The notes below the pieces were generated by a model. It was not told the origin of the DNA, did no database searches, and saw nothing but the letters and a program-made list of their open reading frames with translations. A stretch of 62,555 nucleotides of DNA, filler included, from Diploschistes diacapsis (Eukaryota): the NCBI GenBank assembly GCA_023645945.1. It is 16 parts of 16 records of this genome, joined end to end, with 100 filler letters (N's around TTAATTAATTAA, not from the genome) between each part and the next. Parts side by side here need not be neighbours in the genome. Positions count along the whole stretch, not along the records: positions 5,050 to 30,122 come from JALAIB010000222.1; 15 more parts are not named here. One strand, given 5' to 3'. Below are positions 1 through 28,093 of the stretch, piece by piece. The translations under genes were made by a program, and so were the position numbers. Position 1 is the first letter of the stretch, and the number at the start of each line of letters is the position of its first letter.

Positions 1-99
1 AATAACGATTATATCCAATTAATAATTACGGACGGAATATAATATCCCGTTATTTTTAATTTAAGAAAAATGATTCCCGCCGAAAGAAATTATAAAACC
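1..99 (+). mobile_element. Ty3/gypsy RNase H fragment (RIP-mutated)
   Basis: Translates to ...RKMIPAERNY, the gypsy RNase H motif. It stops abruptly at a TGTTG LTR start at 100. Confidence 0.7.
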
Positions 100-514
100 T
101 GTTGAGCAGACAGGCAGAAGGTATGACTGGGAGTTCGACTGAGTTCTAGAAGAAGGTTCAGTTTAGCTGAACATCCTGGAATTCCAACTAGATCGATTAA
201 GGAATAGTGTAGGTAATAGGGTTTAGCGTATCCTATGAGGATAAAAGTTTATAAAGTAAAATAATTTTTTAAATAAGATCTTTAGACTTCAATATATCTA
301 TTACGTTGTTAAATAGGTTATAAGCTCGGGTTAGCTTACTTAAACTACTTTATATCATTAATATATTGAAGATAAGTTTTCCCGGCCGCTGGAACGGTTA
401 CGAATACGGGACCGAGTACGCTGGTTAAGGGTAGGTCTAAATCGAAGAGATCCGAAAGCTCAGGATTTAAATTATAAGATTTTAGGATGAGCAGATTCGA
501 AAGTAGAAAGTATA
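100..514 (+). mobile_element. Ty1/copia LTR, 5' part, interrupted by a DNA transposon
   Basis: Starts TGTTGAGCAGACAGGCAGAAGG. Homologous to 1377-1780 and to the reverse complement ending at 37130. Confidence 0.8.
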
Positions 515-894
515 ACGTGTTTCACGGGGATTCCGGCTACCTCCAGATTCCGGCCACCTCAAATCACTACCGCTAACATTCTTCGGTTTTTAAATATAAT
601 CTATTCGTCGCAATTAGAATCTAATCAATCTAAATCGAATCTATTTTCTTTTTTTTTATTTTCCTCGATTTCAAAAACGCGACGAGGTTTTTTACGCGTT
701 ATAAATCGTTTCGAAATTTTCGACTCGATTTAACCCGAGTTGTTATTTTAAGAACTTCGTTTATACTAAACATAAAATGACCTTTTAATTCGATTCGTTT
801 ATTTAATTTACGTTTTTTACGATTATTAAGAAACGTTTTTTACTTTTAATTTTCTTTACGAAACTTTATGAACTTAATATACGTCGATTCAAAC
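515..894 (+). mobile_element. Fot1/pogo-like DNA transposon end (RIP-mutated)
   Basis: TA followed by ACGTGTTTCACGGGG and an internal direct repeat ATTCCGGC(T/C)ACCTC x2, the architecture of fungal Fot1/pogo TIRs. Similar ends occur at 37515 and 59779. Confidence 0.6.
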
Positions 895-1376
895 TAGGCT
901 GGCCGTTTCGTGCCACGGACACTGACACGGACACCGCAGTAAAAAATTTTAAAACACGGACACTAACACGGACACCGTAGTCAAAATTTTTAAACACGGA
1001 TATTAATACGGATATTATATTTCCGTGAATTCACGAACACGGACATCGCAATTAAAAAATTTAAAAGCCGGATATTAATACGGACATTATATTTCCGTAA
1101 ATTTACGGACACGGACACCGTAATTGATAAATTTAAAAAACGGATATTAACACGGATATTATATTTCCGTAAATTTATTGACACGGATACTATATTATAA
1201 TAAAAACACAGAAATACTTTTTTTTAATAATATTTTTAAAATTATTACGTTTATTTTTTACGCTTTTGTTTTTAAAATATTTTTTTTAATACGGACGCGG
1301 ATATTATATTACGGTGAATATACGGACACGGATATCGTAATTAAAATTTTTAAAACACGGATACTAATACGGATAT
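895..1376 (-). mobile_element. hAT-type MITE, truncated by a copia insertion
   Basis: Begins TAGGCTGGCCGTTTCGTGCCACGG, the reverse complement of the right end of the complete copy at 43812-44362. Contains internal ACACGGACAC repeats. Confidence 0.8.
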
Positions 1377-2427
1377 TGTTGAGCAGACAGGCAGAAGGCA
1401 TGGCTGGGAGTCTAACTAAGTTCCAGAGGAAGGTTCAGTTCAGCTAAACCTCTTAAAATCCCAATTAGACCGATTTAAGAATAATGTAGGTAATAGGGCT
1501 TAGCGTATCCTATAAAGATAAAAGTCTATAAAGTAAAATAACCTCCTAAATAGACCTCTAAACTTCAATATATCCATTACGTTGCCAAACAGGTTATAAG
1601 CTGGGGTTAATACCTACTTTACTACGCTTAATCGTTTATTAAAACTACGTTTCCCGGTAGTTATTACGGTTATAAACGCGGGTACCGATTACGCTACCTA
1701 ACGTAAATTAAATCGAAGAGATTTAAAAGCCTAAGATCTAAATCATAAAACCCTAAAATAAACTAATTCAAAGATAGAAGTTATATTACTTTAAAAGAAC
1801 GCGGGACCTTAATACGCTGGCCTAGGATAAACCTAAATAAGAAATAATTAGATTCAGATATTATCTGTATAGACCAACGAAAAACAACCTTTTTCTCTTT
1901 CTCGCCAATATCGAAATTTAGCTGAACTACGCTGAACCTTTCGATTACCTTTACTTCTATTACAAAAAATTACCTTCTATATTATTCATTAATCATTTAC
2001 TAATTACGAGTTATTCATTTAATAAATCTTCTTTATTTACGAAAAATAATAATAAGATGGACGACATCTTATTTAAAAAACGGGTTGCTCCCATCCTAAA
2101 AAAAAAAAATTAATAATAATGGTTCGAACTTATACGTTTATATCTTGAAAATAAAGAGGTGAATTACGTTCTTAATAAAATAGTCATTATCGTTTACTAT
2201 AGTTACTTTAGATAATTCTATATTATCTATCTTTACCGATTTAGGTTCAGTTTTGGATAAAATATCTAAACAATAGAAGAAAGATCAATTTAAAGCAAAC
2301 TACCAAATTATAATCTGTATAGAAGAGATCGATTAAGAACGTTTTCGTAATTTATTTATTACGAAAGCTAAATAAGATTCTCTATAAACAAAATACCAGG
2401 CGATTACTGAACCTGAACGTCATTAGC
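1377..2427 (+). mobile_element. Ty1/copia retrotransposon: 5' LTR (about 1377-2024) and start of gag (ATG 2057), RIP-mutated
   Basis: The LTR runs TGTTG...TTAATA (RIP form of TCAACA). The gag reads MDDILFKKRVAPILKK..WFELIRLYLENKEVNYVL, a copia gag N-terminal pattern, with RIP-type stops. Confidence 0.75.
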
Positions 2428-2527
2428 NNNNNNNNNNNNNNNNNNNNNNNNNNNNNNNNNNNNNNNNNNNNTTAATTAATTAANNNNNNNNNNNNNNNNN
2501 NNNNNNNNNNNNNNNNNNNNNNNNNNN
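2428..2527. other. Artificial contig spacer N44-TTAATTAATTAA-N44. Also starts at 4950, 30123, 32632, 35141, 37647, 40149, 42649, 45146, 47640, 50133, 52621, 55107, 57593 and 60077.
   Basis: Identical 100-nt block with a six-frame stop linker, present 15 times. Confidence 0.99.
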
Positions 2528-3668
2528 ATTCTTGACCGATGTTGTAAAATAGGAATTTATTATATATTAATGATACCTAAGAGAACGGGATAGTTAATCC
2601 AAACTAGGCTGATGACGGGTGATATATCATAATAATATTTAATAAATCATACGACAATATCCGCTTTATTGTTTATTGTACGTTGCCTTACGTCCTAATT
2701 ATAAACTATAGCTAATAAGTTATTTCTATTATATAAAGATTTAATTTCCAAGAGATAAACTGGTTTTCGTTATATTGATATTAACTTACGTAGGTATGTT
2801 AAGAGTGATACGGGTCGTAATATAATTTAAAGAGTTATTAATTTTAATAATAAAGCCAAAGACGATTATATTAAATTATTTTTAAAAATATATAAAAAGG
2901 TTCGAGAGTAATAAAAGATATTGTAGTCTCGATAAAAGGACGGATTGGTATTAAAAGACGGATCAGTACATACAGTCGATAAAAAGATATGGACCCCGCA
3001 TAATAAAGAACAAAATGATTTAAAGTTCATAACACAACCCTGCTTAAAAAAAACGTGCGTATATTAAGGCTTAAACTACCTCACGGGGCCATATCTACTA
3101 AACATATCCGCAGAACAATATTATTATAATACATAAAAATACAAACGGATTACTAAACCTTAAACATTATCGATACCGATATATAAAAGCAGTTATCTAT
3201 TATACATAAAGATTTTATATTTGGATTCTCGTCGCTATCCGAACTTCATAACATACGTAAATACGTACCGTATTTCTTTAAAACAGTAATTTAGGTTATC
3301 GGGTTTAAAACAATCTCGAACGCGCTAATAAAGAAAAAAAAATAAACGGATTTTTTAGTTATATAAGAATAAATATAGATTTTTCGGTTAAAAAATAAAA
3401 TATTTACTTCCGAGAATAGATCGAGAGGGCAACCTTGGCGCTAAAATAACATTTTTTTACCGTTAAATCAGTCGAACACGAGCTATATAATCTTATTAAA
3501 AAGAGCTTCTTTAAGACACTAAAAAGAGAAGGAGTGGCCTACTAAGAAATAGGGAGGTTTACGCCTCCTCCTGACGAAAAGGAAGAAAGGGACGAGGAAA
3601 AGAAGGACGAGGAAAAAGAAAACGATCTTAACCTCAACCTAGAGAAGATGGAGTCCAGGACGGATTAA
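2528..3668 (+). pseudogene. RIP-mutated PhyH-like 2OG-Fe(II) dioxygenase
   Basis: Reversing RIP changes by hand gives FR(H)IDIN at about 2765-2785, then IQ..I.FD(D)E..DD(C), QPC..NVR....LPHGA (PHG at 3079-3087) and RRT.L.W, with an acidic C-terminal tail. This is an HxD...H...R arrangement. Confidence 0.55.
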
Positions 3669-4604
3669 AAAAACGGGAAGGAGTGAATAACATGATTAGA
3701 GAAATAGGGTATAAGAGAGCATGTTTAAAAATAAGGTCACTTCGGGGACAGGATATTAAGAATAAACGTTAATATCATAAGACCCTAAAGGCTTATAATA
3801 GGGAACAGTCTACGTGTTTATATAACTATTCGATTATTTACTAATTTCATAACAAGCTTATTTTCCTATCTACTTATTTAATACTCCTTTGCTTACAAAT
3901 TTTTTTATATGATTAACTTTCCTACTTAATAATTTCTTGCTTACTTATTATTTATGTATTAATCTGCTCAACTGCTGTTCTACTTACTTACTTGCTGTTA
4001 CCTACTCGAGAGATATAACGAAGAAGAAAATAAAAGAGAAGAAATGAAAAGACGTACTACCGGTTATAATTATCTAAAAAAATATTTATAAATAATATAA
4101 ATATTATAAAAATTAGGAATGTTTTTAATTAATTACCGCCCTTCTATCTGGCTGTTTTTAAAGGAATAAAATATTATAAAAGTAAATCTAGAAACGCGGT
4201 TATATCGGGATAAAAACCTTAAAGATAATAAGCTTTTAAAGATTTAGATTGTCGGAAAGGTACAAAATTATATTAAGATATAAGAATAATAGGCTTGCGA
4301 TTTTCTGTTGTTAAGGCTAATATAAAGTTCGTTATAGGACAGCGAAATATTAAAAGAAGAGTCGTATATAAACATAAAAGTAAGCAATAAACTTAATAGG
4401 GGTAGTCCCCTTAAGGCAGCTCCATTTAAGGAGGCCTGCTAAGTAACCCTAAACAATTCATGCATCCTACACTTCACCAATTCCCTACCTAGCTATGCTC
4501 TTGACCACGAGAACACACTACACTCCTTTACTACATCACCTACGACCACCTACCTACTACAGCAAGGGAAGTCCCCCTAGACAGCGCGCCTTGTGTTTAT
4601 ACTA
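2528..4604 (+). mobile_element. Unclassified mobile element carrying a dioxygenase-like gene, copy 1 (one terminus at 4604)
   Basis: About 3165-4604 is homologous to the reverse complement of 46174-47639. The shared terminus ...CAGCGCGCCTTGTGTTTATACTA abuts different retroelements in the two copies. Confidence 0.75.
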
Positions 4605-4949
4605 TAATTAATATTAAAAATGAGCTCTACTTCTTGTTTATTTAAGATATTAATCCACCGCATAACTAAAAGATATGTCCATACGTAAACTTTCGATCTA
4701 ACTTGTTTCTCTTATAATCTACATCGGAATATCTCCGTAATTTCGAAAATTCAGGTTTAGTATTAAATTAAACCTTAATATCTTTTGTCTTTCGAATATA
4801 GCAGAATAATCCCTTTAAAGCATATAAATAATAGATATATAAATTAATCATATATTAACTTAATTTTTTAATAATAAATGCGATATCTGATCTAGTATAA
4901 ACCGTTAAATATATAATATTACTAATCATATCTTAGTATTATATCTTGT
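4605..4949 (-). mobile_element. Ty1/copia RT/RNase H fragment (RIP-mutated)
   Basis: The minus strand reads TRSDIAF..KLS, YSDVDY..NKLDRKFTYGHIF, matching the copia TRPDI and YSDAD...DRKST motifs. Confidence 0.8.
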
Positions 4950-5742
4950 NNNNNNNNNNNNNNNNNNNNNNNNNNNNNNNNNNNNNNNNNNNNTTAATTA
5001 ATTAANNNNNNNNNNNNNNNNNNNNNNNNNNNNNNNNNNNNNNNNNNNNCCCCTCTCCTTCCCTGCTTGGACGTCAAGCAAAAGAACTTTCTGTCGCGTG
5101 GCAGTAGAGGCAGGGTTTCTTGTTGCTGAAGTGTTACCACGGGGGAGGCGATCCTGCTGGCACTTTTCTTGTCGCATGCGTCGCTCGAGAGTTGCCGGTG
5201 TAGTTGGTCGAAGGGCCAGTATGCTGAAGGTTTGGATTATGAGTAACATAGGGGTTTTTGTTTTATGCTGGATCTCTGCAGGACCCGTGTGCGGGGATTC
5301 TGGGCTCGTTTGAGTTCAAGCGGGGGTTGAAACGGGGTTGTTTGATGATGATGATTATCAGGGTCTTCGGCTAAATGTAGCCAGACGTTGGATGGAGTTC
5401 TGCTTGACACGACCACCACCTCAAGTATCTGGGTGAGATGGGTAGTTTCCCACTTCACATTTTTCTTGTGGGAACGAGAAACTATTTATATGGGATTGCC
5501 CCCCGTTTTCGTGCATGCTATTCACGTAGATTCCATGAAGCTTTCAACACATGGGCTGAGAATCTTTCCCTCAGACCCCCCTAGATAACAAGAGTAATAG
5601 GCTCATCGTTCGGGACCCTTCAAACTAACCGGCAGGTCATGCAAGCAGACTGGAAAATACAGAAACCGGTAGCCCCCTTCAACGTCGGAATGGTAAGACC
5701 TTGCCTGAAGATTGCTTGGTGTTGTAATGCCTCAACAATTCA

Positions 5743-6294
5743 CTACTCTCTCCGATCCAAAAGCCATTTCCGGCGGAAGCGTGACGCACCGGGCCCCCTC
5801 AGGTCTGTCCGTCCACCTACGGTTCCGCCATCCCACAGCCCCCCAAAGCTTTTATTAGGGTAGGATGTTTCCCGGCGCAGTGATGCGATATGGCATTCCA
5901 CACTACCTTGTCCTTGCCCGACATGGTAAACTTTTGCAAAGTAGAAAGAACGTAAGGGCAAGATGATAGTTGGGCCCCAGCTTTTAGCAGGCTGCACGTT
6001 TGACTTGGCACCCATCTGGAACGCCCGAAGAATTGGACGGGTCGGCGCTTGGTAGCAGGGGAATGATCGATATCGATGCTGGAGCTTGATGGTTTCGGGC
6101 AAGGAGTGGGCCAGTTCGAAGCCGCTGCTGATATTGAGTTGGGTGTTGATAGCGTTAGGGGAAAAAGGGTCGAATCAAAACCTGACGTCCGTACGGGACG
6201 GAAGATCGGAGACGTTGGGTTGTTGGACTTCAGCTATAGTGATCAGATAGGGTCTTTTGGCTGTTAGGGGAAAGGGGTTACTAACATTGGGCAT
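5743..6294 (-). pseudogene. Frameshifted member of the small-protein array family
   Basis: Reads RPVQFFG...SLLKAG and, after a frameshift, GPNYHL. ATG at 6294 followed by a probable short intron. Confidence 0.4.
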
Positions 6295-6642
6295 TATGTG
6301 TTTTGATTTGTTGACGAGACATTGTCATTTTGGAAGCGGGAAAGATGATGGTGGAAAAGAGATATGATGAGTGTTATCAATAAGTAAGAATCGAGAAATC
6401 TCTAGCATTTTGGATATTTTTTTATATGTGTACATAGTCATTTTCATTCTTTAAAAGTACCCCTAACCGCATCCCTGAGTGTCACCCTCTTATACACACT
6501 AATATGTACTGCGATAACCACGCCTATCTTTCAAAAGACCATATGAAGTAACAAGCTCGTAGTATTCATGTCTCTCTGACCTAACTTCAATGTGACCCTG
6601 TTTTTGAGCGCGAGTCCAACGGTCGAGATGACTGCCCTTTAG

Positions 6643-7053
6643 TCAGTCCAGTTTTACCATCCCCGTGGACCAATCCAGGCACCCAACCCTTACAACCATT
6701 CCTCTCAACAAAAAGGCGCCCCTCTCCATGTTTTTTAGAAGTCCTTCCAAAGCTTTCGGCTCCTCGATTCTGAGGAAGGTAAAACTGAATTTGGAAAGCC
6801 AGTAATAACATCCACCAGCTTTCAAGAGGATTGCTTCTTGCCAATTATCTTTAAACGCACAGAGATATTCAATTGGTCTACCGTCGAGAGACTTGGGAAG
6901 ATAATAATCTTCGAGACAATTGTGAGTAACCATGGAGTAGGGTTGAATAGCTTGGATAGGCCTGTTTCTGACTTTTCTGTTGAAGTATTTGTGAGGCTGC
7001 ATACGATGAGTCTTCCGCTGAGTGATCATTGAAATCTGGGAGTATCCCACCAT
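6643..7053 (-). CDS. Small hypothetical protein, array family (M|PHKYF...LDGRPIEYL...LLKAGGCYYW...RIEEPKALEGLL)
   Basis: ATG is followed directly by a probable GT..AG intron at 6997-7050. Exon 2 is open and shares motifs with neighbouring genes. Confidence 0.65.
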   Translation of the reverse strand: MVGYSQISMITQRKTHRMQPHKYFNRKVRNRPIQAIQPYSMVTHNCLEDYYLPKSLDGRPIEYLCAFKDNWQEAILLKAGGCYYWLSKFSFTFLRIEEPKALEGLLKNMERGAFLLRGMVVRVGCLDWSTGMVKLD

Positions 7054-7272
7054 GGCCTCAGTCCGTAGAAAGTAGATAGTATAAGGTGGTTATGATGATA
7101 ATGGTATGTCGATGAGTTCAGTTTAAGAAGTAGACAAAGTGACTTGACTGTGCTTTGCGAGTCAGATACAACATTGAATCCTTTTCCAGCACACTAGAAG
7201 ACCCGTCAATATTGAGATCCAATGGCGTCTCGATTTACGCTCACTCAACACCGAGAGAAGTTTTATACCATA

Positions 7273-7725
7273 TCAGTTATCCTGGCCGGTTTCACGAAAG
7301 ACCATTCTCCTCTTTTTCCATGTGACCATGCCTATTCTTTTCATCTCCATACTTTCCGTACTCTTTTCTGCCTTCATTGCCTCCCAAATATGCTCCATTA
7401 GTGTCGATTTCCCGATACCGTAAATGCAATAGTAGAAGAAATCCCCTGCTTGTAAATGAAGATAGTAATAATTCATACCAGCTCCAAGGAAAATTTGTGC
7501 GTTCCGACATCCATATCCGCCAATGTACTCAACAGGCTCGCCAGAGATTGTTTTTGGTGGATTCCAATCCAGGAATAAACGAACGTTTGCGTGCGGAGGT
7601 CGAGTAAGATGCCCTTCAACCTCAATAAACGGGTTTCTGTGTCTCCGGTTTCCGCGAAGGACTTGGACGGCTTAATTGCGTGAGCATAGCCTCAATGTCT
7701 CATGGATGAACGAACCACTTGCCAT
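7273..7725 (-). pseudogene. Frameshifted array-family member (M|PSK...PKTISGEPVEYIG...FLGAGMNYYY)
   Basis: ATG then a GCAAGT donor, with acceptor before CCGTCCAAG. The conserved motifs lie in a different frame from the exon start. Confidence 0.55.
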
Positions 7726-8325
7726 GACGACTTTTCTAATCTTTCGTGAGAATAGGGTGAGGGATGACTCTTCGATTTGGTGCGAGACTTAATGTGTGAT
7801 GGTTGTTTTGACCTTTAGTGAGGATGAGGTGTAGTTGATGCACATTGAGTGATCACGCAAGTGGCCACACGTATATTTTCTTAAGTGGTTTATCGTTGTA
7901 TGAGGTAAACACAAGAACCCAGTGGAAACTTCGGAAAACTTGAAGATGAAACAAAATCTATGATGGTCTACTGCAAACCTTGGACCTAACCAGAAGTTTC
8001 CCGCTTGAAATCGCAGGCAATAAAATAGTGGCTGCTGCCGTACACCGTCATCTCAACTCGTTCTCTGTAGGTTGTAAAAGTAGGCAGTTCATGAAACTCG
8101 TATGAGAAGTCAGTTGTCGGTTACAACTGTGGTATTTGCATTTAGTAAAGTGTTTTGTAAGTTAATGTGAGCGCCTGCCTACCGATTATGGCTCAGGCGG
8201 CAGCTTTTCCGACACCACCGTATCCAACGTTGATCGATATTCAGTATGAAGAGCAGCACTCAGGTTCAATACCCAAATTCTCCCATCCTATACGTTCAAT
8301 CAGCCTGACCTGAGCCAAGAAGGTG

Positions 8326-8789
8326 TCACAAAGAGTACATCCACTTCCGTTGCACCATATCCCACCTCCCTATTCCAGCTATGCTAATCGCTTCCCTTGG
8401 TATCTCTCCTTTCAGAACGGAGAGGATTGCTTCGAGCCCTCTAGGCTCATCCACTCGAAGAACCAGATCAAGACTCCGGACACCCTTGCCTGGGTCTTCC
8501 ATTAGGTAGTAATATCGACCGGCTCTCATTAGCACCTTGTCCAAATGCGGTGCGCCCCCTACAACCTTCACAAAAAACGCCAGCTGCTCGGCCGGCCTGC
8601 CTTCGATGACATCTGGATAGCGTGGATCAGCGAACGCGAAGGGCAAATATCCGCGACCAACGCTCCATTCTCCCTCAATGGCTGGAATGCTGGTGACTCG
8701 TGTAGTTCTCTTAAATAGGTATTTTCCAGGCTTTATGGGAAAGGTTAGCTTGATGATTAGGGGCATCATGGACGCGACATGCTTACCAT
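8326..8789 (-). CDS. Small hypothetical protein, array family, 135 aa (M|PGKYLF...IEGRPAEQL...LMRAGRYYY...RVDEPRGLEAIL)
   Basis: ATG|GTAAGC intron at 8731-8786 with a GCTAAC branch point. Exon 2 (8326-8730) is open. Confidence 0.75.
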
Positions 8790-9389
8790 TATCTCTCTGA
8801 TCGCAGACCAAGTTGGTAGTAGAGTGGTAGGTTCAACGTTTGGGACAGTTGCGAGAAGTAATGCCGGTAGGTTTTCTTATAAGGAAATCGCAGAGGCAGA
8901 ACGGTGTTCATGTGTTTTCTGACATGAGCGGTTAGAGGGCTAAGACTCAGACTCCTGGCTGGCCTTTTCAAACATCTCTTTTAGGCTTATATGCTAAGCT
9001 AACACTCTCCAATTCTTCAACTCCTCAACCGAAAACGGAAATATAATCATACTTACTCTTTCTTGTAAACAAAAGGCGCAACTATGGCACATGCTACTGT
9101 TAAACCACCTACGCATGTATAGTTATGGCACTCTCCCAGTCCATCGTATCCAATTCATCGGCCCTTTCTAGTATCCTATAAGCACAGGATACCCCTGAAC
9201 GCACCATGCAGCTCGGTCATCCCCTGGCAAATTCTCTGTATCCCAACCATCATTCTCGTTGCTCCTCACTGAGTACTGTAAAAAGCTGATTTTATGCATT
9301 ATCCATCCCGTATACTGTTCATCCAATCCCTGCCGCCACCGCAATTCCCAGAGTACTAGCTCAGATCTGCCCCTCTCGCTCTTCACAGC

Positions 9390-9736
9390 CTAGGTCTCCC
9401 TGCGGAATAAAGCGGCCACGATCTCTGCAAGCCCCTTGCATCTGTGGATCCCGATAACTTGCTGCTGAAGTTCGAAATACACATAGTAGCTGGGGCCAGC
9501 TCTCAGTAATCGTGACGGCAGGCCGCGCAGAATCAGCCCTAGAACCTCGACCGGCCAGCCTTCAATCGTCTGCGGATGATCTGCCATGATGCTAAAGGCA
9601 GGTATGGAAAGAATCGAATCATCGTCGAAGGCTGGAATGGCATCGACGAGTCTGTTCTTCCTGGACAGATATTTGGACGGCTGGAAAGGCTCCGTCAGCA
9701 ATCAGATATACCACTGCAGTAAAGAGCGCTTGCCAT
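9390..9736 (-). CDS. Small hypothetical protein, array family (M|PSKYL...IEGWPVEVLG...LLRAGPSYYV), possibly ending at a premature stop
   Basis: ATG|GCAACG intron at 9681-9733 (GC donor, GCTGAC branch point). The frame stays open past the TAG down to 9168. Confidence 0.6.
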
Positions 9737-10559
9737 GGTGCTTGGATCTTCACGGTCGGAGAAGACTGCTGGTTCGAGAGCTTGATCTAGAGGGAGTTTC
9801 AGAATGCGGGAGAGGTATGAGGTCTAAGATAAGTAGTCATGGCGTATTTGTTGGTAGATGGGCTCAGCTAGGAACTCGGTTCCAAACCCACGACTCTTCC
9901 GCTTACCATGATAAGGTTTGTCTGTTATTTGCTGGGTTTCTGTTCATTTACCTCTCAATTAGGGCTGGGCAATAGGCTGTGTCGTTGTTAAAGTGTTTTC
10001 CGAGTTCTCGAGGGAAGTGTGCGGCTGTAAGCCGAACATCCTCGGACCAAGAGCCACTGGGCTTCTTCTCGTCGGTCTTCCTCCCATTACTCTCAGCGAT
10101 GAGATTACTTCATAGAAGTGAGGGACGACCTCCGCATGTGTAACAACAGAAAAGGTGTATCAAGGACCTAAGCGCACGCTGGGTTAAAACAACGCAAGCA
10201 GATCTTGGTCAAACCACCAGCAAGATATAAGGAATCTACAGGGTCTGTGCAGTATGTAGTACTCCCCATCTCGACGATGAGGTAAAGCGCAATATCACGA
10301 TGATAAAGATATAATTTTGCCGATCTGATGCATTCCGACTATTTAGACTAGACGTACACTCTTGCTCTTTCAGAGTCACTTGAATCGAAATTGGCATGGA
10401 CTCCTGGAATTATGCAAATGAACAAGTTTCATACCTGATGGGAGGTACCATATCCATCAATACCAGACTAGCACGTTGAGCACACAGTCGGTTTTCTAGC
10501 TCTCCATACTCGCCATACTAGGTAGGGAAGTTTGAAGCATTCCAAATCCCGTTTGCACC

Positions 10560-11050
10560 TCAAGCAATGATTTCCCCATTGATGCCCTCCACCATTTCAG
10601 CATCTCCAACCCAGTTTCCCAAGTACTTTCTCTCGATCTTGCTATTGTCGAGAACCAGACAACAAGATGTGGAACTGGCATTATTGGTGAGTGCGAAAGG
10701 ATTTGAAAACTCTTCCTCGTCTAGAATCTCAAATATGCCTTGGAGGGCCATAGGCTTAACAATTTGGGAGACCGTACCAAATTGATCAAAGAAATATAGA
10801 TTAGATCCCGCTTTTAACAGATTCTCACTGTCATACCAACCCGCACTGAGTATATGTAGTTCGATGCTGCCTAGAAATTCCACTGGGGCACCGTCGAGAA
10901 CAGAAGGGTACCCAAACCATGCGCCGAGGGCTGAGAGACAGTGCTCAATGATTGGAACCTTGCGCATTTTCCATTGTGGGTTGCGGAATTTGCGTTTGGG
11001 AGACTGGAAGAATTAAATTGGATATCTCATATTAGGAGGCCACTTACCAT
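10560..11050 (-). CDS. Small hypothetical protein, array family, 148 aa (M|SPKRKF...LDGAPVEFLG...LLKAGSNLYFF...IVKPMALQGIF)
   Basis: ATG|GTAAGT intron at 11004-11047. Exon 2 is in frame with ORF 10560-10967. Confidence 0.7.
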
Positions 11051-11383
11051 CTGAATGGAGAGTTGGAGTGGCGAATATAGGGCACCGGAGCAATCTTGAC
11101 CAAAAGACTTGTGCTTGAAGAAGGAACGCTGGTTTCCAGAAACGGCCGGAATAAATATACAGATGCTATTATAAACACAATTTCGGCTCAGTGTAGGGTT
11201 CTCGTGTACATGAGCTAGATGGTTGGCTTCAGGAATACCGCATAGTTCTGAAACGAAAAAGGTTGAATTGAATCCAAGCCATCTTACAAAGTGCCCCTGA
11301 CTATATGTATACGGTGGCATGGAATCATAATTCCATAGTGCAAGTAGAAGAACGGAACTGGGCACTACTATACAGGTTCGCTT

Positions 11384-11755
11384 TCAAGTAAGCTTCAAAG
11401 TACGCCGGATACCACTTCGATGGTTCGTATACCATTGAACAACAACATAAAAATTTTGGAGAGCCGTTGAATTCTTGATCCGACAGACGGCTTGATGGAC
11501 CAAGTCATTCCAGTAGTAACCAAGAACAGCTTTCAATAGATATATCTGGCTGCTGCAAGCTCGCAGAGTAGCCCAACGGGCTTCCCAGAGATGATAAGAG
11601 GAACCCTCTCGCATTGTCTAGCATGTATAATCCGCAACCTGGAAAAACGAGTAGACCGAGAGAATAAAAGATCCCTCTAGGGCGGTAAAGCTGCGCTTCG
11701 TACGAGCCTGCAGAAGGTCAACCTCATTTTCAAATTGAGAGTGGGCAAGAGGCAT
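11384..11755 (-). pseudogene. Decayed array-family member (YLLKAVLGYYWNDL...VCRIKNSTALQ)
   Basis: Motif similarity to neighbouring genes, an in-frame stop, and no clear start exon. Confidence 0.4.
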
Positions 11756-14360
11756 CCACCGTTTTTGACGCTGAACCGCAGAGAACTGGTTGACTTTGTC
11801 GTAGGTTCGCTTGATAGTGTATCAGCATATGGGGTTTGCAATTTGGAGTAGGATTGTATCCCCGAGGAGCCGGTGAGAGCTATGTGACTAGAACGGTAAC
11901 ATACTGTGGGTACAATGCTTGACTACTCATACAAAGCAATCATGACCTGAACTGTCGTCTCTTCCATAACTACCTGTAAGTGGTATTATTAATATACACA
12001 TGACTATTCAACTTGGACCAAAAGCCTCTAGTACACATGGGTATGAAAGGAAAGGGGATTGAATATGCACCAAATACTTAACATCTCGGGCAGAACACTG
12101 GCCATATATACGATAGCGTGGTAAGATGGCTCTGTATTATAACAATAACTCACGTACAGCATCCGAAGATCAGGTTTCAAGAGTAAAAGGGTGCCGCGTA
12201 GAGTGAATAGTTGGTGAGATCCTAGTTGCGCATGTTTGTGAAATCTTTTACAGCATCCGAACAGACATGTGCTTTCTACCTATTATCAGTATGTCTGTTG
12301 TTGCAAATCCGTTCTCAAACATGCAAAGAGTCCCAGAGGTCCCTCCCAGTAGATAACGTAGGTAAGCTTAGCAAGGGATAAGAACTGGCCTTGTCGTCCG
12401 CGGGATGTTCGCAACTCTCGTCAGCTCTATCTCGACCTAATTCCAGACTCATGCCGTCTTCCAGGTACTATCACCATCGTCGAGTGTGAAGGTCAGTGGT
12501 TGGAGTCTTATCAGGCTATCCAGTCTTGTAAGCTCTTCGAGACTAAGATACCACGAAGTTCAGGAGCGCCAGAATGAAAGACACAGAACCTTGGCTAGCT
12601 CTGGAGACGAAGTAGTTCGTCCCAATAATATCGAGGAATCAGCAGGATGACCTTTCCACAGTCTGTGGAAACTTTTCACAAAAGGTTAAAATGCTGCAGG
12701 CCCAGTCCGAAGGATAGCCTAATCCCTGGGACTCAAACATTGGAAAGGCTCTTTAGTGCGGGACTAATGAATTAGCTGCGTGCATAGATGGAAAGGAGTT
12801 ACTTACCGTGATGAATGTTATCCATCTTAGAAATGCAAAAGGGGTGCCTGAGGTAGAAGGAAGCTGGAGGTGGAAGTTGTTGGGGGAGTGCAACGAATCT
12901 AGCTAGTGAGAAGTATCTGGAGATGGACCAGCATGAGTCAACAAATCAAATCATCAAATACATCAAGCTCCTGATCAGAGGCCCTACACAGCAACAAAGC
13001 ATTTCTCACCCTTACTGAACTGAATATAGTATCAAGTCGCATCTGCACTACCTTTGACTCGACCCCGTGTCCAAGAGAGCTGAAACCAATCATTCTCACG
13101 GTAGATTTCTCTACTCTATGTTGCGGTTAGATACAACCATCTTCAGGCATACCAAAACTCTCCTCTCCAAAACAGCTGCCAACCCAGTTACTAACATAAC
13201 TCGAAAGTCACCCCATATCGAACCCGCAGTATATATACACTAAAATCATAACACAGTTTCACCATGAGTGCCATTATCTACAACAACCAGTCCAATCACG
13301 CATCTCCAAAGAGCACTTTTCTATCTCAACAATGCCTGCGCTGCGAGGCCCGCGCCCCCATCCATACCTCTCCACCTTATTCGCCTACAAAGCCATACTC
13401 TAGCTCCTCGCCATGCCTCCCAGCCTTGTGCTCTACTTACTCACCGTCCGTCCGTCCATCGCTTGCCAATATATCCCTCCTGAGGCGCTCCTGCGGGGAG
13501 GTGTCTTGGGGCGCCCCCGCCCTGATGGATACGTATCTGAATCTATATACGGGGCTCAAGGTGTTGTGCGGCCATACAGTGTGGTTAAGAGGAGCATTAC
13601 CGATCGTGAAGGACGGTAATGGTCAGCAGGGAGCTAGTGTAGGTAGATATATACGCATAGACATTCTCCTGGATATCAAGTCAGTGTTCCGACAATATCG
13701 CCACTAAGACAATAACATCGCTAAAAGAGGAACGGGTCAGATCACACTCTCTACACTATTTCAAAAACAGAAAAAAAAGTAGTGGTCGCATCGTGTAAAG
13801 CAAAATGAGCTCGATATGTGACGGATATTGGAAAGGTGCAAGAGAAACCAACTGCGTGTGTCTATGAACCGTTGTTCTGCCAAACATTGACTGATACCTT
13901 CGCTATATGTTCAAAGAAGCCCACCTAGCTGCTGGTATATACTTCCAGCGTCTGCAAAGTATGCATATTACTCTTCCACATATCCACAGCACAACATGCA
14001 AGGTATGTCTGGTCCTCGTTCACCGTGCTGTAAGTTACGGTAGTTGAAACCCTTCATGTGTTTTTTAAAGCAGTGGTAACCTCTTTACTATTTATCCATA
14101 TCCTGTGCACATGATATACAGTAGAACACTTCAAATACCTAGTGCCGGTTTAGTCTCCGCTAAGCCACATAGGGCAACAGACCACAGCGTTGACCTAAAC
14201 TGGATATATGTAAGCGAGACCACCCGGAGCCCTAAATCGTGCACGTGACATCATGACTTCACTCATTCACGCAGCAAATGTCATTAGGAAATAAGTGCTT
14301 TTATCATATACGTCAAAAACCTGAGAGCTTCCCTTGATTCACTACCCAAAATGAGCCTCC

Positions 14361-15769
14361 TCAAACTTGGTCCCGATTTTCACAGTCTTCCTCATATCTC
14401 CATCCCTCAGAACTCTTGCTCCCCGGCCTCCTAAAGTGCTTCTCGGGGCTCTGCACCTGCGCATTCGCTCCACCGTGCCCGTTGCCTTCTTCCAACAGTA
14501 CCCAGTCATCTCTCGACCGCGCCTCATCTTCGTTAAAGGTAGAATCACTAGGATTGCCACCGATACTGGGACTGGTTCCCGCGCTGCGCCTATTGCGACC
14601 CGGGCTGTAAGAGTGGCTAGTGCGATTGAAGGGACGAGTTGATGAATTAGCAGGTCGCTTGTCGAGGAGGAATTGGTAAAGGCGCGGGAAGACTGGGAAG
14701 GAGGCGACGAGGAGGGCGCTCGCGCCTTCCAGGCAGGCCGTCCAGGAAAGGTTGACGGCGTTGTAGGTAACGTCTGTGTTCATGAAGAGCAAGACACTGT
14801 AGTAGAGGCGAAGGAAGCTGGAGATGCAGGCACTGCGAGGAGTTAAGGCGCTAAGTATGTAACAGAAAAACAAAGGCTTACAGTAGGCCGGTCGCAAAGA
14901 TGGCGCAGATGCCGAGCTTGCGCGTGATGGTGATCTTGAGGCGTAGAATGGCGTAGATTGGAAGTATGAAGATGAGGAGGTCTAGGCCTAGGTTGAAGCC
15001 GCCTGCTGATATGACGGTCGCGCCGTTGTCGAGACAGGTCCCTGGTAGAAGTGGGTTCCAGATCTTCTCTCTTGGAGAACATTGGGCAAGCACGACTATG
15101 GCCGTTATGATATAGTAGAGCGTATTAAAGGCCATCAAGGCCATTGATAGCCAGTATACCGAGTCATTTGTAGTGCCTCGAAAGATTCTTTGGATTTGTC
15201 TGAGAATGGCGAGCTTAGTGAACAGCATACAGAAGGTGTAGAAGAACTCGGAATAGTTGAGCCACTATGACGGTTATTTAGTCGAGGGCACATACAAGCG
15301 CAGTGTGCTGATTACCATCAGGAAGTCCTCCATCTGAGCAACGCTGACGTTCCATTGGTGACGACCAAGACAGTGCGGAGTTTGTACGAGATCGAAGCCC
15401 TGGAACACCATGTAAAGCATCTAGTGTAGAAGTAAGTAATTTTGTACCCTCGTGTCCTCCACATAAAGTAATAGTACGCAAGATCATGATTTGCGTACCC
15501 ATCCTATTATCAGGTAATCTTAACGCTCGTGTTAACCCAGACACCTATCACAAGAGGTTGATTAACGTACAATCCTCAAGTTGCATTTGCTTCATTACAC
15601 GTATCTTTGTGAATAACCGGGCAGCGAACCCTAGGGTAGAGACAACGATCATGACAGAAACTCCCACAATTATTGGTCGAACTATGGTTGGTGGATCGAC
15701 GAAATTTGGGACAACGCCTGGAGGAGGCTCCAATGCCGGCGTGTTGTTGGGATCAAGCAGATTTGCCAT
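14361..15769 (-). CDS. PTH11-like (rhodopsin-domain) integral membrane protein, multi-exon
   Basis: Contains PALEPPPGVVPNF, ARLFTK, FTKLAILRQIQRIF, QCSPREKIWNP..GTC, DLLIFILP..I..L...RKLGICAIFATG and R.YYS motifs, split across GT-AG introns. Confidence 0.85.
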
Positions 15770-17198
15770 ATTGGGCCCTTCTTCGTGGGTTCTTTAGAAG
15801 CTAGATAGAAGAGAGCACAGTGGCAGGTCGAGCTTATTTGCGGTAGCATCTAGAACCCAGAAGAGCTAGAGCCATACGCTGTTACAAAAGAGTGAGAGTC
15901 TAACCTTGTATAAGAGAGCGAAAGTCATACATGCCCTAAAAAGGCTAGACAGCTGCTGGTATGAGAAAGCTATTGATGGGCGTTTGACGCACGGTGGGGT
16001 GAGCTAACAATGTATCCGATGTTTCAACTTAACCAGTGAGACCGATCAGCAGAGTCAGCATAGCAAACAGGTTTGCCCCAAGGCGTGAATTCGAAGTTAT
16101 GACCGGTTCAGTACCAATTTGTCTTACCCTTGATACCATCTCGGGCTTGTGGTTTCGGTTACTCAGTTGGGAGAGGCATCTTTTCTACAGATAACACGAG
16201 TCCCTCCCGATCGTCCATGCTTCAGAGGAGATAGCAATCCGGAGCATCTCATAATGGAAGAGTCGAATCGATGCAGTGACTGATTCGTAATTTGGGCTGC
16301 GTGTTAAAATAAGTTATAGCGCTATCATTGACAAAAGGTCAAGAGCTGGACCCGAGCTAGCCCTCCGTCCCGGATGAGGTCAAGGTAAGACCATATGTTG
16401 GCACCATGCTGCTGCTTCGGCTCAAATAGGCTCATTCGCACATCTTGCCGAGCGAGGGCTCGCGGTTGAGCTGTTTGAACTCTGTCCGCTTAGGACCTGC
16501 TAAAGAGAATTCAAGTTGACGGGATACCATCATTTAGAACGGCCACCGCCATCATCGCGCGCTGGGTGTGGTGTCGACTTTCAGTGCTATATTGCCGATC
16601 ATATCAGCATCGGCAAGCTCTGCTTTCAGGGAGCCATCTTATTTGGTGTTTGCGACTCCGACGAGGGGGTGAGATCTGCAGACTGTGAGTTGCTTTTAGT
16701 CCAGTCATTACTAGAAGGGGAGGAGGGAAACTCTTCCGGATGAACCTTTATCTTTAACAACACAGCATGGACTGCAGCGTTGTTGCCGGTGTAGTCTCTC
16801 CATATACCAGAAGCACTCTGATTTCACTGAGTGCGGAAAGCATCTGATATTTGTACGTATCACTTTGCCTGGTAACGGTACATAGACGGCGGAGACTTTG
16901 TGTTTGTTGATGACTGCGTGTATCGATTGCATGGTTTCCTTCTCCAACTGAAGTCCGTGACAAGCAGTACCTTGAGGCGCATTGTCTACGTTCCGCATCG
17001 AGTTCATGCTGTACTCGCCATGCTGCCAAGTAGGTATAACACGCGCGCCCCAATATTGCTCAATAATTGCACTTTAACAATGATATTTTCTTGCCGTGCA
17101 AATAGGGACTCACATTTGCAGCAGAGAATGATTGCTTCATATAAGCGTATATTGAATTGCTAGACTTACACTGCAGAGAGAACGGGAACATTCTCTTT

Positions 17199-18420
17199 TC
17201 ATAGCGAGTTTTGGTCTAGCACGATCGGAGCGGCCCCTAATTCGAGCCAGCTGCTCTCGAACACCGGCGCCGGTTTCTTCAATTGACCAGCATCCCAGGT
17301 ATGGCTCTGCTGACTCCTAGCAGGCACCTGTACGAATCTTCGAGAGGGCGAGGCCGAGTTTCGGTATTGACTGTAATGAAGCGCCATCGGCTTGATAAAC
17401 TTGGTGCATAAATGTTGGTATAGGCGCGGCACGATCGGGAAGCAGGCGAAAAGAACGATATTGGAGAGTTCCACACTGGATGCCACGGCAATTGCACCAT
17501 AAGAATACATAATGTCAGAAGAGTACAATAGCCAGGCGTTGTAGTAGATGCGGATGCACTTGCAGCACATCCTCTGTATGGGTAAGCTAGGATCCAGGAC
17601 TAGCCTTAGAGTCTTGCGGACAGCAAGCCACCACCATAAGTCTTGGAAATTCCTTGGTTCTCACGTATGGTAGATAGTACGGCGGAGGAACCATCTTCCA
17701 AGCACATAGAAAGGGATTAACTCACAGAAAGCCGGTGGGCGATGCAAGTCCCAGGCAGAAGAGGGAACCACAGCTGCTCTTGAGGCTTGCAGGGGAAGAA
17801 GGCATTGAAGAGACCGGCCGTGTAAAACAAGACATTTAGTATTTAGAGAATGTCAATAGACCTGCATACACCATCCTTCTTAGTGCCGGTAAAGATTCTA
17901 CGCAGCTGCAACAGTACAGCCAACTTGAGGAAGACGATGGATATGTCGTCCAACATGGACTTGATGTTAACCAACTGCATGCGTTAATGACAGGGAACTA
18001 ACAACGGAGCACGGGACACTAACCCATAAGAATCGAGATAGTTGCGTCCCACTGATGGCGTCCAGCTCCCCGTGACCGCGATTACGAACCCTTCAAGAAT
18101 AGCGTACCCTAACCGTCATCTGCTCTTAGTCGGTCACCGTGGACAGGGTTAATAACTGCGAACCCATCCAACGACCAAGGCATCTACGGGCCGGCCAGAA
18201 TGTTTAGTTGAAGACATGACCCACGGTCTTTTATCTGGAATGTCTTCACTATCAGCAACCTCGCAACAATCTTAGGACCCAGGCCGACGGCCGCAAACCC
18301 GAAAAGCAGGAGGCTCAAAGCACGTATAGTATAAACACTTTGATAAAAAGAGAAGAAATTATGAAGTGCTTCCCGTTGGTGCTGGTAGGGCAGGTACTAT
18401 GGCACTTTAGAATGAAATAC
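17199..18420 (-). pseudogene. Degenerate second PTH11-like membrane protein
   Basis: Reads VPALPAPTGSTS* with an in-frame stop, then GRHQWD, KLAVLLQLRRIF and ELSNIVLFACFP. Frameshifts and stops are present. Confidence 0.65.
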
Positions 18421-19551: not shown

Positions 19552-20164
19552 TCACACACGGTTCAATAGGCTCTGGACGCTGATTCTCGTCGGCTTCATG
19601 ATCTTGAAGCGCAAGCCGGGCAGCGTAACCGACCACTCCAGGAAGTGGTGTTTTGCATAAGCCGCTCCTGCGGCGCTGCCAGTGTCGTCGACAATATTAT
19701 GAAACATCCAATCAAACGGTAAGCAATACCTTCGAAGTTTATCGGGCTGGCCATCTGGGACCCCCCGGAACAGGGCAATAAGCTTCTCAGTGGATACTGG
19801 GCCATCAATCTTCCGGAGGTCCACATGCTTTTCGCCCATCGTGCGCCAGGTAAGGTACTGGTTACCTCTTCTTATAGCTGTGACCCTGTGTAGGACGAAA
19901 TAGTCTTGGGAGAATGGTCTGCAAATATCGGGAGGGTTGTACTTGAAGAGGTCGTAGCAGCCTAGGCTAAGGAGGATTTCCGCATGGCCAAGGCCGTATT
20001 CGTACCTGACCGGTTCAAACTGGGCTGCTAGGTATGGGAACTCCCCAATTGGAATCCATTTGTACGGAAATTTGAGCTTGATTTCCGTCTCTACAACTGC
20101 TTGTCTTGGAGCCTGTGAATGGTTAGTATGGCCAATATCGTTCTCTGAAGGGGAATCCGACCAT
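19552..20164 (-). CDS. Hypothetical protein, 187 aa, possible distant member of the array family
   Basis: ATG|GTCGGA intron at 20113-20161 with a TACTAAC branch point and an open exon 2 of 561 nt. IRRGNQYLTW...RKIDGPVSTEKLIALF resembles the family motif. Confidence 0.65.
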
Positions 20165-21274
20165 TTTGAAGGCAGGTGTTACCTTCCTTTGTCACAGTCC
20201 TCCTTGTCCCTCGTTGTTTGACTCACGACATATTTAGTGTCTAACAGACTTTATATAACATCCCATGGGACGGCATCCTCTATGTTAACATGATATCATC
20301 TCGGCAAACTTACTACGGATGTCTTGAGTGTCTTTGTTGTGTCTCTACTTAGCGTCATGACCTTATATATCATTTTGTGTATAGAGAATTATTAGAAAAA
20401 TATCAATATCTTATGAATGTATTGTACTAACCTGGAGCAGGGTCCTAAAGATCAATGAACTGGATGGTGCGTTCCCGGAGTACCCCGTCCTCACGAGAGG
20501 AGTGACGATGGATTGGATCGATGGCATCTCCGCAAAGTTCTAGCTGTACAGACGCAGCAACGTGGTGGCATGGTCTGACCGTTGTACTTATAATATCAAC
20601 CTGCTCACCATTGTTGGCACAAGAAGCTCAAGCGGCTGGGGATTCAAGAGCTTGACAATGACATAGTAATGTGGAGGAGAACACAACGTTGTTTAGCAAC
20701 ATCCGCTATGCTACCAAACTCCATATAGTAAATGCCTAATTTCTCTGCTTCTATCCTTCTCTCCATCCTTTCTCTCGACTTACGCACTCTACCCAACATC
20801 CGCATTGTATCCGGTTAACGAGCTCAAGCATCATACAGTCCAGACACGGGCACACAGTTACCGGACTACACTTCCTTTTTCCACTTCTTCCTCCACAGGC
20901 CTAAGTCACCCAGAGTCTGGTGGGGAAAGATATTATGGACCAATCACCACGAGACGAAGCCAGATGATTACCAATCACCACCTCAGCGGAGCTGGTGCAG
21001 TCTGATGGGATTGCTGCGAGTCGGATCCCGATGTTGTCTGACAGCTCTGGGTAAGGGAGTTGATGGTCAGCATAGAGACGGTGGTACTCTTTGTCACGAA
21101 GGTCTGAACGGGATAGTATTAATGAATCCACAAGTAGGCAGGCAGCAAGCTTCTTAAATAAGAGGTGTGACGGAGTAGTCGACGACGTCGAATTCGGAGT
21201 GGTTTGAAGGAGCGATGTGCGAATCGTTAGCTTAATCAAGTAGCGAATCCGAGCAGGCAGCAAAATTTCGTTAG

Positions 21275-24574: not shown

Positions 24575-25471
24575 TCAAGGGGAGGATAGCAGCTTGATAG
24601 TTGTGTTCACATTCGTATGACTTGCACTTCTGTCGTGATCCAGTTTGTGTCGAAAGGAGCGAAAAGCTACAGATACCTTGACGTTACTGCTAGATACAGG
24701 CTGAAAGTTGCGAGCTGCCACTACGTCAAGAGACGAATGTGTGCTCCAACCAGGTCCGTTTCCGTGTTGATCTGAAACTGGGCCCTCCCGGTTGAACTGC
24801 CACTGCTGCATCTCCTTTGGGAAATATCCTGCCTCCTCCCCATCCACTAGTGCCCGAATAACCAGCGTCCTGACATCGACCAGAATGTTGTGGTCCACCA
24901 AGTCGTAAAGGATGAAGACGCTGTTGACCGATAAGGACTGCTTGACTGGCCAATCCAGTCTGTCGTCCATCTCAATGACCCAGCGTGGCGGCATGACATA
25001 GCCGTTGAGACCTGTAGATTTGCTCTCGAGGTTGCGAAGCTGCGGCAGTACGGGTGTTCTGGACAAAGTCTTCGACGTTCTGGCGCACGATGCTGTGGCG
25101 GGCGGAGCAGGGCCCGGAGTCGGGCATCATGTGGTGGGGAGGTCGGCATCCGACACACTTCGGCCGCACGGGAGGCTTGAACGGTTCCTGTGATCAGCTC
25201 CGTCTCGATATAGAGATGACCTTTCCTGTCATAGCCGTACGAGAGGACTTGCGGGACTGGGATGGTGGTCTCCTCCCCCGAGGAGCTGGTACGTGACAGC
25301 CTCGGTAAAAAAGCGCTGGGCAAGTCGTGGATCGTCAATGTACGAGCCCTCCGCTTTCTGGCTGCGCTCTTGGAGGGGAATCTCGCATTTGATGAAGGTC
25401 GTCGACGTGGCGTTGTACGTCTTGAATTCCAAGCGGGCAAGTTCCCTTTCTCCGGGGCTTTTCTGGGCCAT
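24575..25471 (-). pseudogene. APH/choline-kinase-like phosphotransferase, frameshifted
   Basis: Segments RFFTEAV..LL, TTIPVPQVLSYG, LPQLRNL.S..TGLNG and DLVDHNILVD...ALVDGEEAGYFP lie in different frames. Confidence 0.7.
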
Positions 25472-25824
25472 TGTGAGATGCGAGTCTTAGGCTACCTGCG
25501 TAGGTATTTCGGCTGAATTGGTAAGAGAGAATGAAGGAAGAGTGCTCGCGTGGGAGAGGTAGGCAGCCTTCTGGCATCTCGCCAGTTATAATGTGCAAGC
25601 CACCAATACCCCACATTCTCCCAGCCATCACTCCTCATGCTGAATAGGGTTGTAAACAGAACCCATGCTATAAACGCCCAGTCCATCCCAACCCGGCCAG
25701 CTTGACGTTATCTCTCAGTCAATCCGCTTTCATGGTTCTCAGGCCGCCTGCCTAAGCCCCGGCGACAGTTCTTTTATTACCTTGATCTCTACAGCATCAG
25801 AAAGCTAACTTGACCTGCCTCAAG

Positions 25825-28093
25825 ATGTATGACCCAGATGTCATTGCCTACCTTTACCCGGTTCAGGGTCAGGGTAGAGATGGCGCGTTAGACGCCATCA
25901 ATATGGCCGCCAACCGCTCTTGATACCGCCATGCTCGACTGTATAACCGATCTGCTGCAGCCAGCGCTTAATACCGACACTCACTCCGTCAGAGAGGCAA
26001 CAGAGCAGCCAGAGGAAGATGAAGACCTGGAACGCCAGCCCTGTATGGCGCTGACATTCAGCAATCCCCCCACGACCCGTCGAGGCCTCATGGCAGGGCG
26101 AAGTCCGCTCGCAAACATTGCTCTGCCCAAGCTGAAAGGCGTCAGCTGGTTCCACTTCACGGTGACTTTTGACGAGCATTTCTACTTGATGGTGAAGGAC
26201 TTGAATTCCACGGTTGGGACACGAGTCATCTACGACGGCGAAGAAGGGCAGCAAGGACACGGAGTCGCCTGGAGCGCCCGCGGCCCAAGCTTGGTGAAGG
26301 GTAAAACGCCCGTCATCAAGGTCGTTGGAGATCTCCAGTTCAGGCTCGTCGTCTCAGATCATGACGTAACCTCCCAGACGTATCGCGACAACGTCGCGCG
26401 ATTCCTCCAGGGCACGGCAGCTGCCGAAGACCTCCTCTCGGACCTCAAACTGCTCAGTCGCACGCGGACCGAGCTCCCGTCCCCTGGCGAGGCCCACACG
26501 CCGTCTGCGCAGGCTCCAGGGCCCATACTTTGGAAGAAAGAGCTCGCGCGGGGGGGTTTTGCGGTGGTGAACTACGCCTGGGATGTGACCAGCAGAGCAG
26601 AATACACCCTGAAAGAGCCTCTGCCGGTGGAGGGGGGCGACTGGGAAAAGGAGGCCAGAATCATGAAGGGCACTTCCCATGTGGGTGCTACCCTGCTGAG
26701 GCGTCTCTGATTGCACTGACTCACTGACAATGCCAGCCAGGCTCATATCGTTGCGCTAAAGCACGCGAGCTTCAACCCTGGGCCACATCTCTACTTTGAT
26801 TACGTCTCAGGAGGCTCTCTCGAACGTTATCCGACCACGACGGCCTTCCAAGGAAACAGATCGCCATCCAGCTGCTCGACGCCCTCGCTTACCTCCACGG
26901 ACAGACGCCGCCAATCGTCCATCGAGACATCAAGCCGGAGAATGTGCTTGTCCAGCACTGGAGCCGCGACAAGATCCATCTCAAACTTGGAGACTTCGGT
27001 CTGTCAAAGCAGTCAAAGGACCTGGCCACCTTCTGCGGCGCGGCAATCTACATAGCTCCAGAGATCTTGTGCGCCCGGCTGGCCAAGAGCAAGGACGCCT
27101 CCAAGTACGATCCCCTGGTCGACGTCTGGTCTCTCGCCGTGCTCCTTGTCAAGCAGGTATGTCGTGGGCTGCCGGAATGCCACCAGAAATACATGACCGC
27201 TGGAACGACCTGGGGCAAGTTGATGCTGCAGTTTGTGAGGAGGCATCTGCTAGCCTCTGAGGACCACGACCCACTGCTACATTTCCTCCTCGACGACATG
27301 TTGGTGATTGACCCAAGGAAGCGGCAGCCAGCGCAAGTGTGTCTCGACAAGGCACTGCGGCTGTCTGGCGATGACGCTCCAGTCGCGACTCCTGAGCGGC
27401 CGTCCCCCATCGAGGACTGGGATCTTTCGCCGCATTCTTCGGGCGATGTGGATGATAGCAGCGAGGAGAGCATTCCAGCCACACCCAGAGTTCGGCCCGC
27501 GACTGTCGCTTCTCCTCCCGAAGACCCCGGGGCCGGCGAGGCCGACCACCATCCGCTTGTATCCAAGAGGCAGCGAAGACAGCAACCAGAGCCTGGAATC
27601 ATCAGACTCGAGAGACTCAGCGGCGCCGGGCAGCGCGAGCCTCATCCGTGACCTGGGTGAAAACGGCTCGTCATTCATCGACACCGTGCTTGGCGTCAAG
27701 CCTTCAGACATGGCAGAGTTTGAACGCTCGGGCGCTCGACCTCCCAGTGTTATTCCAGATAGTTCTGTGGTTAACAGCGAGCTATGGGGTATAGAAGCAA
27801 CAGCCGAGGCTCGTGGCTCGTTCACTGCCTTGCAACAGAGCGGGCACGGGCAGTTGGCGGCCGGTACGGACTCGCTTGGCTCGGAACTCGGCCTGGCCAT
27901 CACCAACCAACTTGCCAGAGCTGCGAGAGGAGAGGATGGTGCGGCTGCAGCAGCGACGCCATCTCAGCGCAAGAGGCCGCGGCCGGCAGCGAAGCAAGGC
28001 TCCGGGACTGCGAGTTTCTCGCTAGAGTCTGCCGTTCATGGTCCGGAGGAAAGCATTAGTAAACGTAGCAGGATAGAGTCCGCCCTAGGGTAG
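25825..28093 (+). pseudogene. FHA-like plus Ser/Thr protein kinase, disrupted
   Basis: MYDPDVIAYLYP start with an early TGA. An FHA-like GVSWFHF...VKDLNSTVGT segment is followed by LARGGFAVV, IVHRDIKPENVL, LGDFGLSK, YIAPE and DVWSL. Several frameshifts. Confidence 0.8.

Follow-up and report, generated by a model that had tools for sequence, protein, structure and literature searches.

The window analysed here is a 62,555-nucleotide (nt) stretch of DNA from Diploschistes diacapsis (assembly GCA_023645945.1), and it carries on its minus strand a tandem array of small, highly diverged paralogous genes. A sequence-only reading had proposed about seven co-oriented copies, five of them with a first exon consisting of the start codon alone; the array is confirmed. 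Minus-strand ATGs lie at 7053, 7725, 8789, 9736 and 11050, each with an intron directly after it (54, 52, 56, 53 and 44 nt, respectively; two, those at 7725 and 9736, have GC donors), and exon 2 then opens with PHKY, PSKS, PGKY, PSKY and SPKR in copies 1 to 5, all as that reading had described. This ATG-plus-intron pattern, whose donor was chosen after inspection of these five genes, occurs five times within 5701-11800 against a mean of 0.11 (maximum 2) over 1000 shuffles, and once more in the rest of the window when both strands are counted. The unspliced frame is closed in four of the five genes; the exception is the gene at 7053, whose intron is in frame and stop-free with a weak donor and is therefore the least certain of the five. 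We infer from these signals that all five copies begin with an ATG-only exon followed by a short, predicted intron. Such first exons, like tandem arrays, are common in fungi. Database gene calls start elsewhere than these five ATGs, as the sequence-only reading had said of the ORF track. Successive starts are 672-1314 nt apart, a wider range than the spacing of roughly 1 kb first estimated.

Homology among the five products is evident at the protein level: all 10 pairs score above chance (z 4.5-12.2, each score being reached by at most 1 of 500 shuffles) at 21-31% identity, and leave-one-out hidden Markov models (HMMs) give 25-38 bits against a maximum of 9 in 1000 shuffles. Third codon positions are saturated between copies, and blastn between copies finds no repeat, which agrees with the earlier remark that nucleotide similarity is not obvious. 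The signature of repeat-induced point mutation (RIP), also reported absent, was not found in the array. The spacers used as scan controls yield no match, and they contain no open reading frame (ORF) longer than about 120 codons.

Three copies are intact. Copy 1 (6643..7053; 118 amino acids (aa), M then PHKY) has its ATG at 7053-7051, an in-frame GT-AG intron of 54 nt at 7050-6997 and exon 2 at 6996-6643; copy 3 (8326..8789; 135 aa, M then PGKY) has a GT-AG intron of 56 nt at 8786-8731; and copy 5 (10560..11050; 148 aa, M then SPKR) has one of 44 nt at 11047-11004. Copy 2 (7273..7725) is frameshifted near 7660, its GC-AG intron (7722-7671, 52 nt) lying just before the frameshift, and what remains of the family frame runs stop-free for about 128 codons; it reads as a recent pseudogene. 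Copy 4 (9390..9736; 97 aa, M then PSKY; GC-AG intron 9733-9681, 53 nt) keeps the core domain and is truncated by a TAG directly past the core helix, earlier than in its paralogues. Upstream of copy 4, on the same strand, an additional intron-like unit (ATG then GTAAGC, 9823..9909) has no family match; it could be a duplicated 5' end, an added upstream exon or a short upstream frame, and it is deleted in a low-depth contig of sequencing run X3 (joint 9826-10038).

The other copies were scored by a frameshift-aware scan, in which four spacer controls were equalled by 57-92 of 100 shuffles. Copy 6 (11435..11755, minus strand), a pseudogene with a frameshift and stops, gives 43 bits over 11435-11667 (0 of 100 shuffles). 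Copy 7 (5813..6233, minus strand, mostly in the frame 5817-6233) is a degenerate remnant with RPVQFFG...LLKAG that gives 27 bits over 5813-6080 (0 of 100), and it is not significant by a cruder matrix (z 1.3) or a plain HMM (E 4.5). The array had been thought to start with a 143-aa ORF at 5743-6174, but that frame is not homologous to the family and the remnant lies in a frame overlapping it. The count of about seven thus stands, with copies 6 and 7 recovered as pseudogenes, and should probably be extended by a heavily decayed eighth copy outside the range first given, at about 12570-12810 (minus strand). Its score is borderline (18 bits, 1 of 100 shuffles; cruder matrix z 2.3), and it has a canonical 43-nt intron (GTAAGT...CTAAT...TAG) at 12806-12764 with ACG just before. 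The cruder matrix clearly supports copy 6 only. Since copies 6 and 7 are pseudogenes, only copies 1, 3 and 5 remain intact and 5 of 8 copies are damaged.

Comparison of sequencing runs adds to this picture of birth and death, which the sequence-only reading had correctly recognised. Run X2 (mostly 90-99% alike) covers the array end to end, in all 30 bins, and one of its contigs, at depth 97, lacks 11449-11757, most of copy 6; array copy number thus differs between close relatives in this single comparison. Among the pieces listed, divergence is 4.4-6.6% over the array, spacers included, versus 2.1% over a neighbouring rhodopsin-domain gene; in run X3, which has low depth, 21 of 289 bases of copy 2 are changed, versus 7 of 413 in the same rhodopsin-domain gene.

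The five products show no hydrophobic N-terminus, signal peptide or membrane helix, and the description of a fast-diversifying, non-secreted family was sound. Each has one domain with P..G.P+E and one Glu invariant across the array. The N-terminal tail of all five is basic (P-x-K or S-P-K-R; 4-7 K/R among the first 20 residues); such tails can serve as nuclear signals, and S-P-K, once Met is cleaved off, is the N-terminal motif methylated by Tae1/NTMT1. Charge is reversed between neighbours, copy 5 having an isoelectric point of 4.9 and the other copies 8.5-9.4. No Pfam domain, F-box included, is matched by or fused to the array proteins.

When 1.84 billion representatives were searched exhaustively with a profile, 13 matches emerged: 4 window proteins, 8 proteins built of tandem repeats of about 100 aa, and P0012, which was dropped from the relatives as a chance match. 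A second search gave 22 proteins, 19 of them new. The related family (P0013-P0049) has 2-5 repeats per protein, each starting P.GW...YGL; the members with a species name are from Imshaugia aleurites and Mycena galopus, and most others are ENA or Logan records. Array and repeats share 43-44 columns at an HHalign value of 96.5%, the first repeats having been picked with the array's own profile, and the repeat profile scores 16-23 bits on four of the five array copies. The common core is LL..G..YY...I..P..L..IL; the N-terminal halves differ. No Pfam family describes either group, and the repeats contain no conserved catalytic set. A five-repeat member lies in the same genome (L010:1999-3825, contig C34 of G000); P0019 and its cluster are this gene and so represent no independent taxon, and single-domain and multi-repeat forms coexist in one genome. 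Five pairs of repeat-family proteins on equally long contigs suggest that they cluster elsewhere too.

The fold predicted for a repeat (predicted local distance difference test, pLDDT, 81) has two short helices, a meander with strands at 58-63, 71-76, 79-84 and 89-95, and after it a single helix at 99-106; P.GW forms a bridge of two residues, and there is also a C-terminal strand. The window protein is modelled with strands at 45-57, 60-70, 73-78 and 90-93 and a helix likewise at 99-106. The four-stranded beta-meander (strands 3-6) and following helix of the SUKH superfamily are thus present, confidently for the repeat relative only. Of the other SUKH hallmarks, an N-terminal beta-hairpin (strands 1-2) that splits the sheet and four conserved helices, the repeat model shows no clear hairpin, and the window model is unreliable there. 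SUKH structures ranked 1, 10 and 47 among 48,161 in the fold search. Among the top 50 viral matches to a two-repeat model, 26 of 37 named rows are betaherpesvirus proteins, 7 of them confirmed as US22 family, with E 0.007-0.5 and root-mean-square deviations of 11-20 A over the two-domain model.

Profile comparisons were less informative. HHalign of array and repeats against home-made profiles of SUKH-3 (n=8), SUKH-4 (n=5) and SMI1 (n=16) stayed below 1%, in a test of low power, the SUKH families matching each other at just 0.1-4%. The best value, array against SUKH-3, was equalled by 1 of 40 column shuffles with these small profiles. The US22 profile PF02393 found no match in the array and a single one in the genome, on another contig at E 0.3, below the cut-off; hmmscan was negative. 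Nor is the array a Knr4/Smi1 orthologue: PF09346 matches only contig C4119, where the true Knr4/Smi1 gene lies (L011, 77.5 bits). Resemblance to SUKH/US22 is weakly but consistently indicated by the models, and only by way of the repeat family; the predicted core appears most like the C-terminal half of these domains. On balance we lean slightly towards a SUKH ancestry of the array domain.

Several known systems offer parallels. SUKH immunity proteins (Smi1/Knr4, Syd, SUKH-3, SUKH-4) have the meander and then the helix that are predicted here (PMC3113570). Bacterial poly-immunity loci comprise small single-domain co-oriented genes, about 20-30% identical, toxin-free between them and strain-variable (PMC3113570, PMC3482391, PMC12247911); the corresponding layout, four or more diverged paralogues in one orientation and uninterrupted by a toxin gene, is found here in 7-8 minus-strand copies. 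Poly-immunity proteins are tandem repeats of one domain, as in the repeat family (PMC3482391, PMC12247911). The US22 family (SUKH-5) of betaherpesviruses likewise forms multigene arrays and tandem-domain proteins, but its profile fails on the array and no viral genes were seen at the array locus. Fungal Knr4/Smi1 and F-box-SUKH-4 proteins are also intracellular SUKH-fold binders; Knr4 is single-copy and elsewhere in the genome whereas the array is expanded, and the F-box proteins carry an F-box that the array lacks. Both the domain family and its layout, which resembles poly-immunity, are new here: searches of the open-access literature, supplements aside, turned up neither an account of this family nor one of any fungal SUKH-like array. 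Whatever its function, an unannotated domain family, with starts missed by gene callers, is now defined in lichen fungi and Mycena.

The explanation that we prefer, tentatively and at rather less than an even chance, is an old birth-and-death array of reduced SUKH/US22-like domains that act as small intracellular binders of conflict proteins. Seven to eight paralogues, all with a first exon of just the ATG, would encode single-domain proteins in which a helix packs against a four-stranded beta-meander. The lack of a signal peptide and membrane helix, together with that of a conserved catalytic set in the repeats, points to binders rather than enzymes; most likely non-catalytic, they would attach to other proteins and neutralise them. 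In a biological conflict, every diverged copy would have a partner of its own to recognise, such as an incoming toxin or some other foreign protein, and would decay or be deleted once that target is gone; strong divergence, charge reversal between neighbours, and long survival followed by loss are what target-specific conflict binders would be expected to show. The same domain strung into proteins of 2-5 repeats would be the counterpart of bacterial poly-immunity proteins. Several results weigh against this: the window protein model is poor (pLDDT 55); SUKH and US22, which the sequence-only reading had named, do occur among fold matches, but none is significant, cystatins tie and PF02393 is negative; and a scan of 14 neighbouring ORFs turned up no recognisable linked toxin, HET or killer domain, which is among the reasons for our restraint here and in the narrower form below.

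Lichen fungi live among dense bacterial communities. Fungal cells and nuclei are reported to receive nucleases injected by bacteria (10.1101/2025.10.28.685041; PMC9973263; PMC12574953), and transfer of bacterial immunity domains to fungi was flagged in 2012 as an open question (PMC3482391). A narrower and unlikely form of the conflict-binder reading is a eukaryotic poly-immunity locus, in which reduced SUKH arrays and multi-repeat proteins neutralise toxins injected by bacteria, for example dual-kingdom type VI nucleases that reach the fungal nucleus, to which the basic tails would direct the proteins. If true, a fungal family mirroring both bacterial poly-immunity layouts would be a candidate protein-level defence against bacterial effectors.

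Among the alternatives, the domain might be a SUKH-like or unrelated binding scaffold that, like Knr4, FBXO3 and the US22 proteins of viruses, works as adaptor for or inhibitor of proteins made by the fungus itself or by a symbiotic partner, rather than protecting against toxins; we put this at about one chance in a handful. Eukaryotic and viral SUKH members do work as adaptors or block host defence, but the conserved eukaryotic lineages are described as unexpanded (PMC3113570). The closest viral fold matches are US22-type and the basic N-termini could send the proteins to the nucleus; yet a true Knr4/Smi1 gene exists separately in the genome, the array proteins are fused to neither an F-box nor any other Pfam domain, no signal peptide would export the products to a partner, and most copies are damaged. 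A convergent resemblance, in which a generic beta-meander binder of fungal origin (cystatin-like or a similar inhibitor fold) diversifies for an unrelated reason, seems improbable: the viral list is dominated by US22-type proteins, SUKH matches align the post-meander helix whereas cystatin matches mostly cover the part before it, and the weak profile scores come from the low-powered comparison above.

Decay of a once-functional array that is now neutral, its open frames merely not yet broken, would suit the damaged copies, the excess divergence of copy 2 in X3 and a position at a contig end next to RIP-like DNA. Still, X2 covers the array end to end, and three copies have retained complete frames along with the core motifs and splice signals despite saturated third positions, which argues for selection through most of their history and makes neutrality rather improbable. 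Least likely, and quite doubtful, is a role of the genes as antidotes to toxins, spore killers or incompatibility factors that the fungus itself encodes elsewhere. Bacterial toxin domains have been taken up by fungi and put to use in conflicts within a species (PMC3482391), and antidote arrays would presumably turn over likewise; but toxin, HET and killer domains were recognised neither in the 14 neighbouring ORFs scanned nor, read by eye, beside the C34 repeat gene, with the caveat of one unexplained neighbouring ORF (19552-20178).

The genome (29 Mb) is split over 4361 contigs, and the array begins about 700 bases after the first base of contig C1358. The window consists of separate contigs joined via N gaps, so its long-range neighbourhood is unreliable; the AT-rich DNA with RIP-like dinucleotide ratios at 1-5000 lies beyond a gap from the array. 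Pfam matches were obtained for 5 of the 14 scanned ORFs, and the neighbours are ordinary fungal genes: the rhodopsin-domain gene (14361-15793, minus strand, PF20684), a lactone oxidase, and an FHA and protein-kinase gene in GC-rich DNA (24575-27651, Pfam scan). Together with the lichen-metagenome label of the one sequencing run that contains the whole stretch, and which may be its source, this makes a lichen-associated ascomycete the most likely host. The unexplained ORF at 19552-20178 (minus strand, 208 codons) has no Pfam, PADLOC or PHROG match; by eye it bears a faint similarity to the repeat motif, which is not significant. A second, more decayed rhodopsin-domain gene, also judged by eye, adjoins the first at about 16500-17900 (minus strand). 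Opposite the FHA-kinase gene lie two ORF pieces of phosphotransferase type by eye, without a Pfam match. The sequence TTAATTAATTAA inside the N gaps (about 5015-5027, and in other gaps) is an assembly linker and non-genomic.
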